Shown: positions 37,463 to 63,931 of the stretch, piece after piece | Layout of the letters: the number at the start of each line of letters is the position of its first letter | Position numbering within the stretch: the first letter of the stretch is position 1 | Source of the DNA: Candidatus Dojkabacteria bacterium | Lineage (GTDB): Bacteria; Patescibacteriota; Dojkabacteria; SC72 | Length of the DNA stretch: 64,000 nt | Direction of reading: 5' to 3' | NCBI GenBank assembly: GCA_012513575.1 | Contig: JAAZBX010000007.1 | Span: forward strand, 27,931-91,930 | The notes under the pieces: generated by a model | The model's database searches: none | What the model was told of the DNA's origin: nothing | What the model saw: the letters and a program-made list of their open reading frames with translations, nothing else | Translations under genes and position numbers: made by a program

Positions 37463-37915
37463 ATGAAGAGATCAACTGATCCAAGACATTTAGCAAGAAT
37501 CCTTGCACTTCAAGGACTTTTCTCAAAATACTTTTTGCAAAAAGAAATTCATATGGAGATGATTCCCATTAAGGAACTTTTGTCCATTGATGAATTTGAA
37601 GACTATGATAAGGACTTATTTGAAAAAATTACTGAAGGGGTTGTAAATAATATCGAACAGATAGATAAATTGATTGAGAAATACGCGCCCCAGTGGCCAA
37701 TTCAACAAATGAAGTTAGTTGATTTACAAATCCTAAGAATTGCTATTCTTGAAGGCTTTATCTCAAAAATTACTCCTCCTAAAGTTTCAATAGATGAGGC
37801 AATTGAAATCGCAAAAGATTTTGGTGGGGAGAGTAGTGGGAAATTTGTAAATGGGGTTCTTGGCGCAATATACGAAGAAATTAAATCTGAAGAAGAAAAA
37901 GATGGAGAAAATTAA
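37463..37915 (+). CDS. nusB: Transcription antitermination factor NusB
   Basis: RHLARILALQ, ILRIA, IDEAIEIAK, FVNGVL. Confidence 0.94.
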   Translation: MKRSTDPRHLARILALQGLFSKYFLQKEIHMEMIPIKELLSIDEFEDYDKDLFEKITEGVVNNIEQIDKLIEKYAPQWPIQQMKLVDLQILRIAILEGFISKITPPKVSIDEAIEIAKDFGGESSGKFVNGVLGAIYEEIKSEEEKDGEN

Positions 37916-38594
37916 CGAAATAGAAGAAAAAATTGGAGTAAAGTTTAAAAATCACTTACTTCTCGAAACAGCTTTTACACATAGGTCATATCTTAATGAA
38001 AATAGAGGAAAGAATTTGGAAAATAATGAGAGGTTAGAATTTTTAGGAGATGCAGTACTCGAATTAATTGTGTCAGCAAACCTTTATCATAATTACACCG
38101 ACAAAGCCGAGGGCGAGCTTACAAGTATTAGAGCTGCAATAGTAAGAACAGAGAGCTTAGCAAAAGAGACTGAAAGGTTAAATCTCGGAATGTATCTTAG
38201 GATGTCAAAAGGAGAGAAAGATTCTGGAGGAGAGGAGAAACCATATTTACTAGCCAACTTATATGAGGCACTTCTTGGAGCAATCTATTTAGATGCTGGA
38301 TATGAGGAATGTTTATATTTTGTGAAGAGAACTCTTTTCAAAAAAATTAAGAGGATTATCAGTCAGAAGCTTTTTATTGACCCTAAAACAAAGGTACAAG
38401 AGATAATGCAAAGAAAACACCGTATAACACCCACATATGAGATCCTAAAAGAAGAGGGGCCCGATCATAAGAAATCTTTTACGGTAGCTCTCTTTATGGG
38501 AGACAGGAAAGTTGTTGAAGGAGAAGGTGCAAGCAAACAAAAAGCTGAGGAAAATGCAGCAACGAATGCAATAGATATTTTAGAAAAAGATTAA
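37902..38594 (+). CDS. rnc: Ribonuclease III
   Basis: AFTHRS, NERLEFLGDAVL, dsRBD (DPKT...EGPDH...SKQKAE); start set to ATG 37902. Confidence 0.96.
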   Translation: MEKINEIEEKIGVKFKNHLLLETAFTHRSYLNENRGKNLENNERLEFLGDAVLELIVSANLYHNYTDKAEGELTSIRAAIVRTESLAKETERLNLGMYLRMSKGEKDSGGEEKPYLLANLYEALLGAIYLDAGYEECLYFVKRTLFKKIKRIISQKLFIDPKTKVQEIMQRKHRITPTYEILKEEGPDHKKSFTVALFMGDRKVVEGEGASKQKAEENAATNAIDILEKD

Positions 38595-57491: not shown

Positions 57492-57559
57492 TCGCCATAT
57501 CTCTCTTGTAATATTCAAAGTCCTGTGATTATGAGAGAGGAGACATTTCTTAAATGTGC

Positions 57560-57628
57560 TTGAATTCACTTCCGACCTATAGTATAATATAAGTATATAC
57601 CTTTATGGTATAAACTGCTCATTAAAAA
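57560..57628 (+). promoter_or_regulatory. sigma70 promoter, small hairpin and boxA-like site (locus C)
   Basis: TTGAAT(57560)-17 bp-TATAAT(57583); TATACC-TTTAT-GGTATA; CTGCTCATTAAAAA (57615-57628). Confidence 0.8.
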
Positions 57629-57630
57629 CT

Positions 57631-57807
57631 TCCAATTAATACTTTGTGATTTATATCCTGTATTAATCTGGATAAATAGCATGTGATGAGAATATATTCT
57701 TCCTTATCCTTTTTGGGATGCATATTGTACCTAAGTATATTGGGTATATTATGCATCTCAAATGAGGTGATAAAAAATTAAACAAGAAATATTCGAGGAG
57801 GAATATT
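57631..57807 (+). ncRNA. Structured 5' leader shared with locus D
   Basis: Hairpin 57631-57672, arm TAGCATGTGATGAG 57677-57690, long hairpin 57715-57759; covaries with 62164-62307. Confidence 0.7.
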
Positions 57808-58887
57808 GTGAAAAAGCTAGTAGTTTTTATTCTTATGTTAAGTATTGTATTAGGAGCATGTAATCCAAACCCAACAAATGTACCGACTATCGAACCAACA
57901 GCAACTCCAAGTCCAACGCCATTTGTATGGTCGTGCGAAAATGATCCCGTGAGGGGTGTATCGCTAGACTTAGAGGGAATGTACAAGACAAGTATAGAAA
58001 ATAGGTATGTTCCCGGGTGTACTCAGGGGTTTTTCATAGGTCTCTCAGGAGAGGCGTACCAAATCAATTTCCTTTTCAAGGACTATCAAGCTATTAGTCT
58101 TGACAATTCTTTTATCGCCAATTTAGAGACGACTGTTGAGTGGGAAATATATGCTTATGATTATTTTGTTCCACATCATTCTCAAAAAAAAGGTGATATT
58201 ATCTCCTTTGTAATGCCAGCTCCAGGGTATTTTCTTCTTGATCGTAACGGCTACCTTTATTTTGGAGTATTCGATGATCCTAATTTTGAAGATTATGTTA
58301 GGGTATTTGTGGATGGCGAGGAATGGTTTGCTTCTTCTACTACTGTTAGAATCTTGTTATCCCCAAATGGAGAATACATTGTACCGGAAGGAGCCACAGT
58401 AAGAATTGAGTCAATCAAGGATGCAGTTGATTATCAAGGTTTAGAGAATTACGGAACTCTCGGTTGGATTGAAGCAATTGTTTTTGAACGAACGTACCCC
58501 GGGGACACAGCAAAGACCAATCACCCAATTCTGAATGAAGAAACCCAAATTGATTTCGGACCGTATGGGATTTATAAACCCTCCTTTAACGAAGAAAGAA
58601 ACAAGTGGGGCCTTTCCCTTTCAGAAGAATCCATGGTAAAGCCTGGGATTTGGGAGGAAGGATATCTGAGAGACTTCATTTGGCACGGTGGTGCGTATGT
58701 ATTTTATATGCCCGCAGATGGGGTTGTATTTTGGAATAGAAGAACTTCTTCAATTTTGTTTGAAGGGGACGAAACAGATTCAGACACTGACAAAATAGAT
58801 GCACACCTCTATCGAGAGGGTGATTTAGTAGTTGTCTATTTTGAGAGGGCTTCTCTGGATGATTTTTACATTGAGTTTTTGAATTAA
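57808..58887 (+). CDS. Orphan lipoprotein (locus C)
   Basis: GTG start with SD GAGGAGG; lipobox LGAC; Pro/Thr linker; C-terminal domain similar to the locus D protein. Confidence 0.85.
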   Translation: MKKLVVFILMLSIVLGACNPNPTNVPTIEPTATPSPTPFVWSCENDPVRGVSLDLEGMYKTSIENRYVPGCTQGFFIGLSGEAYQINFLFKDYQAISLDNSFIANLETTVEWEIYAYDYFVPHHSQKKGDIISFVMPAPGYFLLDRNGYLYFGVFDDPNFEDYVRVFVDGEEWFASSTTVRILLSPNGEYIVPEGATVRIESIKDAVDYQGLENYGTLGWIEAIVFERTYPGDTAKTNHPILNEETQIDFGPYGIYKPSFNEERNKWGLSLSEESMVKPGIWEEGYLRDFIWHGGAYVFYMPADGVVFWNRRTSSILFEGDETDSDTDKIDAHLYREGDLVVVYFERASLDDFYIEFLN

Positions 58888-59047
58888 TGTCTCCCCAACT
58901 CTAGCTAGGTTTAGAACTGAAATATATCTTTAATATGATTAAACATATTAAAACAAAAATTTCATTTCACACAACCTCATCACATGCTAGAGTTCTATTT
59001 AGATATTTGTTCTAAAATACTATTTTGTATTTTCTGATAAATACCTA

Positions 59048-61276: not shown

Positions 61277-62050
61277 ATGAAACTATCTTTGGTTATACCA
61301 ACATACAAAAAACAAAGAGATGTTTTGGATCAATTAGAAAGAGTATACGGCTACCTTTCAAGAAAGAATCCTGACTTTGAACTCATCTTCGTTATTGATG
61401 GGTATGTTGATAATACTAAGGATATTTTAGAAAAATATGTTAAGGAGAATAGATTAAAAAAAGTTTCCATCATAGGATATGAAGATAATATGGGTAAGGG
61501 ATATGCTGTTAGATATGGAATGAAAAGAGCTACAGGGGACGTTATTGGCTTTATTGATGCTGATACAGATATTCAAATTAGGACTTTAGGTTATGCTCTA
61601 AAATCTATCAAACATGATTCTGTCATGGCTGTAGTACCTTCTAAATTTCATAAGGATTCAAATGTTGAAATGAAACTTGGTAGAAAGATTCTTTCCTATG
61701 GATTGATGTATACTAATAGGTTTCTTTTAAAGCTACCAAAGAATGTTGACGATGTTGGGTGTGGTCTCAAATTATTTAGAAAAGAATTAATCGAAAGAAT
61801 ACTTCCTTCGTTAAGAGTAAATAATTTTGCGATAGATTCTGAGATATTAAATCTAATTGGTAGAGTAGGTTACTCAGTTTCCGTTATTCCTTTCTACTTA
61901 AACAAGAACAGAAGTGAAAGTACATCTGCGAATATTGGGAAGATTTTAGGCATGGTGAAAGATATATTTGTCCTTTCATTAAGTAATAGATATATTTTCA
62001 AGAACTCATTCTCAAAGCCATCTTACATTGACAATTCTAGCAACCTATAG
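61277..62050 (+). CDS. GT2 glycosyltransferase (DPM/DPG-synthase-like)
   Basis: LSLVIPTY, NMGKGYAVRYG, FIDAD, GLKLF; start set to ATG 61277. Confidence 0.88.
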   Translation: MKLSLVIPTYKKQRDVLDQLERVYGYLSRKNPDFELIFVIDGYVDNTKDILEKYVKENRLKKVSIIGYEDNMGKGYAVRYGMKRATGDVIGFIDADTDIQIRTLGYALKSIKHDSVMAVVPSKFHKDSNVEMKLGRKILSYGLMYTNRFLLKLPKNVDDVGCGLKLFRKELIERILPSLRVNNFAIDSEILNLIGRVGYSVSVIPFYLNKNRSESTSANIGKILGMVKDIFVLSLSNRYIFKNSFSKPSYIDNSSNL

Positions 62051-62089
62051 TATAATACATGTGTTAATTGTTAACCTGCTCTTTATAAA
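62028..62089 (+). promoter_or_regulatory. Consensus sigma70 promoter, small hairpin and boxA-like site (locus D)
   Basis: TTGACA(62028)-17 bp-TATAAT(62051); GTTAA-TTG-TTAAC; CTGCTCTTTATAAA (62076-62089). Confidence 0.85.
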
Positions 62090-62095
62090 TTAATC

Positions 62096-62363
62096 CTTAA
62101 GAATTCATAGTGAAGACCCTTGTCCTATATGAGTTCTTAAGAACTCGAAGATCATTAAAAATTTCTAAGTATATACATTGATTTTATTCGGTATGTATTT
62201 AGATCAAATAGTGTGTGATGTAAGAGAGTAGGGTATTCATTTTACTTCCTACCATCCTTTTGGGATGCATAGTGTATCTAATATTTATTGGATATAGTAT
62301 GCATTCCATTTGGATGCAAAAGCAGAGAGCTTTTTCGAAAATTATCGGCTTAAGGAGGCCAAA
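62096..62363 (+). ncRNA. Structured 5' leader of locus D
   Basis: Hairpins 62097-62141, 62164-62203, 62262-62307; second boxA-like GATCATTAAAAA near 62150; arms 62208-62221 and 62321-62329. Confidence 0.7.
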
Positions 62364-62924
62364 ATGAAAGACAATAAGAAAGATGAAAAGAAACCTAACT
62401 GGAAAGAAAAGATCAAAGAGGTCAATTGGTGGATGGTTTTGGCCATCATTGCGGTCATAGCTTTATTGCTATCGTTCGCCTATCGGGCGCAACAAGCGAA
62501 GCTAGCCGCTCCAGCAGCATCATCACAGTCCTCAGGACAAACAGGCGACCAGACAGGCATCGTTGCTGCGGCTCCCAATTGTCAAGAAATTGGCATAACT
62601 TTCGGCAAAAGCGGTTCATTCCGTTCCGTATGGGACTCGAATATGAAAACATGCGTTCTGGGAATGTGGGAAGAAGCGAGGATTTCGCCCGGAATGTCCT
62701 TGGCGGACTTGAAAATTCAAGGGGACGATTACTCGTTCCTCATGCCGTTCAAGGGATCAATTAACCATTCCGCGGACACCATTTTCGTGAACAATACAAA
62801 ATGTACCCCAGGGAACCCTGTTTCCTGTGATGGGAAAACTTCGTTCGAGAAGAACACCCCAGTACATATTGTTTCCGAACCGGGAAATGATTCCTCAGGC
62901 GTAATGCTTATTCAAAATCCATAA
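62364..62924 (+). CDS. Orphan single-TM surface protein (locus D)
   Basis: SD AAGGAGG then ATG 62364; charged N-terminus, TM, Ala/Ser/Gln linker, 4-Cys domain; visibly more GC-rich than its flanks. Confidence 0.82.
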   Translation: MKDNKKDEKKPNWKEKIKEVNWWMVLAIIAVIALLLSFAYRAQQAKLAAPAASSQSSGQTGDQTGIVAAAPNCQEIGITFGKSGSFRSVWDSNMKTCVLGMWEEARISPGMSLADLKIQGDDYSFLMPFKGSINHSADTIFVNNTKCTPGNPVSCDGKTSFEKNTPVHIVSEPGNDSSGVMLIQNP

Positions 62925-63009
62925 CAAACTCTCTGCTCCTGGGTGGGGGACAATCTTTTCTGCTTAACCGCATTAAAAATCCCCCACCCCACAAACATCA
63001 CACACTATC

Positions 63010-63081
63010 AATCTTCTAAGACTATACTGTCTTACTGATGAGTCCACATATATTTACAAATATATTGAGGACGAAAAGATT
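63010..63081 (+). ncRNA. Type III hammerhead ribozyme
   Basis: AATCTT-C (stem III 5' strand and C17), stem I TAAGAC/GTCTTA, CTGATGA core, stem II GTCC/GGAC, GAA-AAGATT (core and stem III 3' strand). Confidence 0.93.
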
Positions 63082-63097: not shown

Positions 63098-63931
63098 TTA
63101 ACTAAATATTTTCCTTGAAAGTTCAAATACTTTCATAAAAAGAGTGGGAGGGAGAACACTTAAAATTCGAACCCCTACTTTTTGTATACCCCAAATCACA
63201 CTTTCTCTAAAGGTTGGTTTAATATTCAAATTCTCTATCGCCCAGTTTCTTACCTCATTTGTTTTATTAAAATGATCAACCATTTTTGCCTGGCTTTCCG
63301 TTTTAAAAGTCATTCTATACTTCAGAACCGTATCAGGAAGATTTGCAAACTCTCCTTTGGTACTAAGGGTTAAAAACAGTTTTACATCTTCAGTCTTCCA
63401 CATATCTTCTGGATACAAACCTACCTCTTCTAATGTTTTTCTCCGAAGCATTACGGCCGGATGGGCAAAGGGTTGAAACAGAAATCTGTTCCTTTTCAAT
63501 CGGGAATCCTCCAACGCATACTCCCTATGACCAATATTGTTGGATTTCTCATCGATTATGTCTATTTGACCTCCAACTGCAACACAATTGGGGTTCGTCT
63601 CCATATATTCTGCCTGCTTTCTAATTCTATCCGGGCACATTATGTCATCAGCATCCATTCGTGCGATATATTTGCCGTTTGAGCTCTTAATCCCAATGTT
63701 TATTACATTTCCCAAGCCATTCTGTTTTTCTATAGGAATTACTTTAAGGATATTGGTCTTTTTTTGATATTCATAAAGAATCCCTAAAGTATTATCCTCA
63801 CTCTTGTCGTCAACAACAATGATTTCCAAAGGAGAGTAATCTTGATTCAAACAGCTCTCAATTGACTCTTTTATATATTTCTCTCCATTGTGAACAGGTA
63901 TTATTATTGACACCAAGGGATTAGATTGCAT
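63098..63931 (-). CDS. GT2 glycosyltransferase
   Basis: VSIIIPVHN, IIVVDDKSED, YIARMDADD, HPAVM, ED. Confidence 0.92.
   Translation of the reverse strand: MQSNPLVSIIIPVHNGEKYIKESIESCLNQDYSPLEIIVVDDKSEDNTLGILYEYQKKTNILKVIPIEKQNGLGNVINIGIKSSNGKYIARMDADDIMCPDRIRKQAEYMETNPNCVAVGGQIDIIDEKSNNIGHREYALEDSRLKRNRFLFQPFAHPAVMLRRKTLEEVGLYPEDMWKTEDVKLFLTLSTKGEFANLPDTVLKYRMTFKTESQAKMVDHFNKTNEVRNWAIENLNIKPTFRESVIWGIQKVGVRILSVLPPTLFMKVFELSRKIFS

Follow-up and report, generated by a model that had tools for sequence, protein, structure and literature searches.

We find that a hammerhead ribozyme lies behind a small, hypervariable protein gene in a genome of Candidatus Dojkabacteria, and we consider it probable that the ribozyme cuts the transcript after C63016 and so gives the mRNA of this likely surface protein a fixed, end-paired 3’ end that is protected by a cyclic phosphate. 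All positions refer to the window, the whole 64,000-nucleotide stretch of DNA that was analysed. The ribozyme closes a unit that consists of a promoter, boxA-like sites, two complementary arms and the enclosed "cargo" gene (Table 1). Four other explanations of the cut are weighed below, alongside the evidence that bears on each of them.

Results

The hammerhead and its conservation

The core of the ribozyme is complete (CUGAUGA at 63035-63041 and GAAA at 63073-63076), with a UUC cleavage triplet in which C17 is C63016. Around it are a 6-bp stem III, read from the sequence (63010-63015/63076-63081), a 6-bp stem I with the loop UAUACU (63017-63022/63029-63034), and a 4-bp stem II with G10.1-C11.1 (63042-63045/63069-63072), which beyond a 2x3 internal loop carries a 7-bp extension (63048-63054/63059-63065). 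The coordinates given for the core, the three stems and the extended stem II in the initial annotation are therefore correct. Stems I and II are closed and stem III is open, as in type III hammerheads, and all three pair at the core. Hammerheads of this consensus cut 3’ of C17 and leave a 2’,3’-cyclic phosphate. In a ViennaRNA fold of the isolated ribozyme, stems I and II are formed and stem III is absent. A strict hammerhead descriptor found one match in the 716-kb genome, at 63010-63081, and none in 10 locally shuffled genomes. An Rfam search, which had been proposed as a check, gave a mixed answer: RF00008 aligns over its full model with 30.5 bits (E = 3e-4 in 1.2 kb), which is under its gathering score of 48.5, and at gathering level there were no matches for the hammerhead region.

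A pattern scan of GTDB genomes returned 22 loci (14 labelled Dojkabacteria/WS6, 7 "Saccharibacteria" and 1 uncultured bacterium), metagenome contigs gave 34 loci, and viral contigs gave no match to the element. The loci with the "Saccharibacteria" label (L031, L034, L036-L038, L041 and L045) have a Dojkabacteria-type locus and neighbours, and their labels are probably loose. With a covariance model the element was found in 43 of the 99 genomes, and 13 of the 21 genera, of the Dojkabacteria family; a separate leader model also hit 43 of 99, mostly overlapping the ribozyme-bearing set. Two single-contig family genomes, G022 and G058, have neither ribozyme nor leader. Outside the family, the ribozyme-only model matched 4 genomes among 150 of the class and 11 among 151 of the phylum, and a phylum-wide promoter-boxA pattern proved too strict, matching 1 of 401 genomes and missing this genome itself.

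In an alignment of 25 copies, most of them rows from a pattern that fixed part of the stems, 96% of cells are paired, and two-sided changes are seen in 6 of 16 pairs, with all three stems represented; none of 500 shuffles scored as high in paired cells. Of 61 distinct copies, found by a search that tolerated small core changes only, 59 have a complete core. This set includes near-duplicates of one genome from different collections and leaves out L137 and the hammerheads without a cassette (L123, L124/L136 and L135). All 61 copies have a U at the 5’ end of loop 1 and an A just ahead of the 3’ strand of stem II, neither of which was fixed by the search patterns; these are bases of the tertiary-contact motif according to the available part of PMC3064770. 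Judged from its sequence, the ribozyme is a real type III hammerhead, as had been claimed, and one under selection: the core bases and the three stems are there, the stems covary, and the U and A of the loop contact are in place.

Organisation of the unit

Table 1 Features of the unit and its neighbour in the window.
Feature	Position	Strand	Basis
Sigma-70-type promoter, TTGACA-17-TATAAT, 12/12 consensus	62028..62056	+	sequence
boxA-like site 1	62077..62089	+	sequence; conserved in alignment
Leader hairpin (62096-62109/62128-62141) and mutually exclusive short GAGUUC/GAACUC hairpin	62096..62148	+	both conserved
boxA-like site 2	62150..62161	+	conserved
AU-rich hairpin that separates boxA-like site 2 from 5’ arm	62164..62203	+	conservation
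5’ arm of leader-trailer helix	62208..62221	+	pairing, covariation
Long leader hairpin	62253..62316	+	predicted; deep RNA contigs start at or after its 3’ end
Shine-Dalgarno AGGAGG	62352..62358	+	sequence
Cargo gene, 186 aa	62364..62924	+	sequence, structure prediction
Trailer hairpin	62941..62989	+	predicted
3’ arm of leader-trailer helix	62995..63008	+	pairing, covariation
Type III hammerhead ribozyme, predicted to cut after C63016	63010..63081	+	core, stems, Rfam alignment
Convergent GT2 glycosyltransferase gene, outside the unit	63098..63931	-	gene call

The promoter is often doubled in relatives, with the two copies about 92 nt apart. The boxA-like sites resemble the boxA consensus and the rRNA boxA of this genome; site 2 precedes the 5’ arm by 55-65 nt in 45 of 48 copies. 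Between the two sites, both of the mutually exclusive hairpins are kept with compensatory changes and could form a co-transcriptional switch. The shorter of these hairpins looks like half a hammerhead and was considered as a second ribozyme; it was rejected because it has no core and no Rfam ribozyme was found there.

The two arms form 14 Watson-Crick pairs, and the predicted cut falls 8 nt past the 3’ arm, which is the spacing that had been claimed initially and which is conserved in relatives. Indeed, the gap between helix and predicted cut is 8 nt in 37, 7 nt in 10 and 5 nt in 1 of 48 copies, and with a gap this short the helix abuts stem III. Pairing over at least 12 bp is present in 43 of the 45 copies with enough upstream DNA, compared with 4 of 45 at a shifted control position. 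It is kept by 17 sequence variants of the arm pair, and the L120 variant is fully compensated. The helix also appears in both the minimum-energy and the centroid structure of the predicted cut product (z -6.9, 20 shuffles). Its sequence is unrelated to this genome’s own 16S helix, and its length of 12-14 bp is under the requirement of at least 17 bp that the available part of PMC11404451 gives for the 16S rRNA helix.

We also compared the predicted openness of the catalytic core in different states of the 3’ arm. The median unpaired value is 0.49 with the arm free, 0.83 with the arm sequestered and 0.67 with the arm shuffled. Among the related copies, which are kin and not independent, 35 of 48 lie below their own shuffled-arm mean, and several variants do not. 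In these models the free 3’ arm pairs with the catalytic core, so it is possible that the helix gates cutting.

The cargo gene

The cargo protein is predicted to consist of a membrane helix, a flexible linker and a small beta-sandwich, and a hydrophobic segment near the start is found in 42 of 45 distinct cargo proteins. The protein has no Pfam, PHROG or ESM Atlas match, and its predicted fold has no Foldseek match at E 0.001, the best Z of 5.4, to cupin-like folds, being within background. The gene has a GC content of 46% compared with 35% for the genome. In 31 genome pairs whose neighbouring GT2 proteins are at least 90% identical, the median cargo identity is 25%. The cargo is hypervariable between relatives, and it is likely exposed on the surface or part of the envelope. 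Inside the gene, contigs of separate runs diverge from the reference at two common positions, 62505 and 62904; these shared departure points, and the mosaic look of the cargo homologs, suggest recombination within the gene.

Terminators, neighbours and related units

In the window no terminator follows the ribozyme, and 17 nt separate it from the GT2 stop. In 32 of the 61 copies the ribozyme is followed, at a distance of 7-25 nt, by a hairpin-plus-U terminator, which none of 305 shuffles showed; the other 29 have no strict terminator. The ribozyme would therefore act with or without a terminator, and where one is present the cut would remove it. The suggestion that the ribozyme stands in place of a U-tract terminator consequently fits this copy but not the family.

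Of 39 copies, 21 face a convergent next gene, 15 are followed by a co-oriented one, and 3 have no next gene. In the tandem units of L038 and L122 the ribozyme is directly followed by the boxA-like site and the arm that belong to a second unit, and paralogous units with the same arms but no ribozyme occur at 57575 in the window and in L172-L174, L176 and L177, some of them with a terminator and others with ribozyme remnants. From the tandem units, the ribozyme-less paralogs and the neighbour orientations we conclude that the ribozyme is part of the unit and not of its GT2 neighbour. The second unit of L038 is nearly empty, with 451 nt between the two predicted cuts. In L151 and L162 a second gene of the cargo family comes right after the ribozyme, in L151 with its own promoter. 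A deletion in L174 (G109:C3) reaches from the exact predicted cut site into the terminator and removes the ribozyme, a single case that may be an assembly artefact.

Related units in this genome likewise have no hammerhead. The paralog at 57555-58990 (+), which is the 57575 unit named above, has a promoter, boxA, a hairpin, 14-bp arms (57677-57690/58977-58990) and a 359-aa lipoprotein gene, followed by what is likely the decayed start of a ribozyme (clearer in L019). Promoter-plus-boxA units without a hammerhead also precede small membrane or lipoprotein genes at 2526-1814 (-) in the window and at G000:C22:30996 (-). A check of other boxA cassettes, which had been recommended, turned up none that ends in a hammerhead in this genome, with its single hammerhead.

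These data bear on the possibility that the cut serves mainly to insulate or terminate, detaching the mRNA from GT2 read-through and letting RNase J or Rho in to remove the polymerase. Both proteins are encoded in the genome, this copy has no terminator and a GT2 stop 17 nt away, 29 of 61 copies are like it in having no strict terminator, and RNase J1 accepts 5’-OH RNA and can dislodge a stalled polymerase (PMC8501993, available part). However, a terminator comes right after the ribozyme in the other 32, the next gene is often co-oriented, and insulation would not need a fixed helix spacing of 7-8 nt. We therefore regard this explanation as unlikely. Insulation from the convergent GT2 gene, which the initial annotation had offered, does not serve as a general reason for the ribozyme either, given the co-oriented neighbours and the tandem units that are split by the ribozyme alone.

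The unit could also be a selfish mobile RNA element of the retrozyme kind, or the relic of one, in which the ribozyme serves spread and not the gene. Paralogous units at several loci, the tandem and near-empty units and the GC-rich cargo would all be compatible with this. We nonetheless find such an origin very improbable: the promoter, which lies ahead of the RNA start, accompanies the unit; the unit occupies a single fixed position next to GT2 genes in many genera and mostly has one ribozyme; there are no matches in viral contigs; and 3 of the 22 genomes of the genus have a reverse transcriptase, this genome not being among them.

RNA contigs from public runs

The stretch is present in 21 public runs from 14 studies, 13 of them recorded as RNA. 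We examined eight of the 22 listed runs, picked for containing this stretch, all as assembled contigs with flat depth per contig. RNA contigs from three studies end at 63003 (X7), 63013 (X8) and 63002 (X11), with no loose 3’ end; all three ends lie in or adjoin the 3’ arm, where the helix alone could stop a library. The depth before and after the cut is 4828 vs 10 in X4 and 841 vs 2.6 in X10. The probable DNA run X1 and the unlabelled run X18 cross the predicted cut at even depth. The X4 end, at 62998, is a strain branch point that is found in DNA-like runs too, and the X2 contig ends earlier. A terminator-like site at 62930-62949 was discarded because RNA contigs pass through it. The contig ends and depths are thus a weak hint of cleavage at the ribozyme. 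The initial proposal that the ribozyme sets the mRNA 3’ end is likely to be right, given the conserved spacing and RNA contigs that stop at 63002-63013.

On the 5’ side, deep RNA contigs start at 62316-62444, and 62044-62315 is uncovered in five of six RNA runs, which we do not count as evidence. The deep X10 contig starts exactly at 62316, the 3’ base of the long leader hairpin, and this could be due to a library stop or an RNase III cut.

The apparent abundance of RNA upstream of the cut, and its stop near the cut, argue against a reading in which cutting is a control step that destabilises the mRNA through loss of the terminator hairpin, in the manner of Clec2, or is tuned by ions or folding. 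Removal of the terminator in 32 of 61 copies would agree with such a role, as would the predicted pairing of the free 3’ arm with the core, which exceeds that of shuffled arms in 35 of 48 copies; the Clec2 hammerhead, for its part, removes a poly(A) signal (PMC6765202, available part). Yet no ligand-binding domain is seen, and several variants have no arm-core pairing. A destabilising role is, in our judgement, quite improbable.

RNA ends and host enzymes

The genome encodes NusB, RNase III, Rho, PNPase and RNase J; the nusB and RNase III genes lie side by side at 37463-38594 (+) of the window. RNase II/R is above cut-off in none of 98 family genomes and in none of five distant carriers, and PNPase is the only processive 3’ exonuclease found among those searched. 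According to the available part of PMC10250234, a 3’ or cyclic phosphate is no obstacle to RNase II/R, blocks RNase PH and may block PNPase. With RNase II/R not found in the family, a cyclic phosphate could be a particularly effective shield for RNA.

The cyclic phosphate might alternatively be joined to a 5’-OH beside the 5’ arm, producing a natural circular mRNA. The geometry does resemble engineered circularisation by a ribozyme plus a stem, 20 of the 22 genomes of the genus have a 2H phosphoesterase of the 2’-5’ ligase family (each scoring under the family cut-off), and the ends of the 451-nt L038 unit could re-form stem III. On the other hand, RtcB was found in none of 61 family genomes and one of five further genomes, the stem III halves mismatch in three of four tandem units, the leader has no second ribozyme, and the contigs of the eight runs, which cannot prove absence, contain no back-splice joint. 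A circular product is very unlikely on this evidence, and the idea that the cut supplies a ligatable end finds no support. The genome’s own 2H phosphoesterase, of 193 aa and with both HxT motifs (G000:C4:28129-28650, -), could act on the cyclic phosphate.

Discussion

A working model

The observed base of our model consists of the perfect promoter, the boxA-like sites, the covarying arms and the constant spacing from arm to cut. By analogy with the rRNA operon model, NusB/S10 on boxA would keep the 5’ arm close to RNA polymerase until, some 800 nt further on, the 3’ arm comes out. The ribozyme would then fold and cut, as hammerhead chemistry suggests and the RNA contigs weakly hint, releasing the mRNA wherever the polymerase stops. 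Cutting would strip off a terminator or read-through tail and split tandem units. The short tail on the helix and the blocked end may resist PNPase and RNase J may clear the 5’-OH downstream piece, so that the outcome would be a long-lived, abundant mRNA.

Several points stand against this reading. The helix is shorter than the one required for 16S rRNA, and in five of six RNA runs the deep contigs leave out the 5’ arm, so that the mature RNA may lack it. The ribozyme is dispensable, given the ribozyme-less paralogs and the genomes G022 and G058 that have neither part. A terminator hairpin itself protects a 3’ end, and about half of the copies already have one. Finally, PMC10250234 raises blockage of PNPase by a cyclic phosphate as a possibility only.

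The same layout, in unrelated sequence, recurs in distant Patescibacteria. L188 (735-1590, +, in G321 of another Patescibacteria family) has a promoter of the same motif, boxA, a helix of 15-16 bp and a predicted cut 6-7 nt behind it, with a 119-aa soluble protein as cargo. L137 combines a perfect promoter, boxA and a lipoprotein gene with a helix of at least 15 pairs, and its hammerhead lies about 100 nt behind that helix. In L167 (11400-17500, -, in G181), a single-contig genome of another family, a 6-kb array combines one perfect promoter, seven boxA-like sites and three type III hammerheads with unrelated unknown genes. The phylum sample holds 11 genomes from other families with a hammerhead, and in 10 of these we saw no helix that ends 45 nt or less from the cut (1-2 could not be parsed). 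Two hammerheads 833 nt apart between unknown genes are seen in L189 (G243).

A bolder scenario, which we offer tentatively and consider doubtful, is that Patescibacteria have repeatedly built ribozyme-based mRNA maturation from rRNA parts. Nus-boxA would deliver the 5’ arm and the helix would free the core, which would license the cut on complete transcripts only. The cyclic phosphate would act as a 3’ cap in cells without RNase II/R, and the boxA-gene-hammerhead arrays would be self-chopping, rRNA-like operons that yield stable single-gene messages for swappable proteins.

The roles of self-cleaving ribozymes in bacteria are largely elusive, with glmS as the sole well-understood case, according to the available part of a 2019 review (PMC6765202). 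If our main reading is correct, forming mRNA 3’ ends would be one of the few well-defined tasks of a ribozyme in bacteria, and the reach of the Nus/boxA and leader-trailer system would include mRNA. The unit would then also point to an envelope gene of this uncultured lineage that is strongly transcribed and changes fast. The natural variants without ribozyme, terminator or both make the proposed role testable with a 1-kb transcript.

Comparison with known systems

On every sequence feature examined, the ribozyme is a member of the type III hammerheads (RF00008), with which it shares the core, the three stems, an NUH site, G10.1-C11.1, the loop-1 U and the stem II A contact, and it is predicted to cleave itself at C17. 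It differs from them in being chromosomal, usually single and linked to a leader-trailer helix that encloses a protein gene, and in the extension of stem II past an internal loop, with a score below the gathering level. Retrozymes and viroid-like circular RNAs have two flanking hammerheads, unlike this genome with its one.

Three systems share parts of the arrangement, as far as the available portions of their sources describe them. The prophage hammerhead clusters of PMC3088659 were proposed to cut long transcripts into single-gene RNAs, and the L167 and L189 arrays are similar; that portion reports no detected circles either. It does not describe boxA or end-pairing, and our unit is a conserved chromosomal locus with GT2 neighbours and no phage context. 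Theta ribozymes (PMC10879173) are also small and self-cleaving, and trim a 3’ trailer directly behind a closed, structured RNA, but they have an HDV-like fold and act on phage tRNAs, whereas here the target would be an mRNA. The rRNA operon leader (PMC10250234) likewise has strong, often tandem promoters, boxA ahead of each unit and complementary arms around a long RNA. In contrast, our unit encloses an mRNA, its helix has 12-14 bp rather than 25-40, and its 3’ end is predicted to be made by a ribozyme. The unit therefore appears to work like the rRNA leader-trailer system and is not a member of it, as it encloses a protein gene.

A further parallel is a synthetic one. In the engineered HH@ pre-16S constructs, as the available part of PMC10250234 presents it, a boxA leader and a leader-trailer helix are combined with a hammerhead behind the trailer that leaves a 7-nt tail. 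That design is synthetic, was made in E. coli and matures rRNA, whereas ours is natural and surrounds a variable protein gene; if our reading holds, it would be the natural twin of a design that has so far been engineered in the laboratory. We found no description of this unit in the open-access literature.
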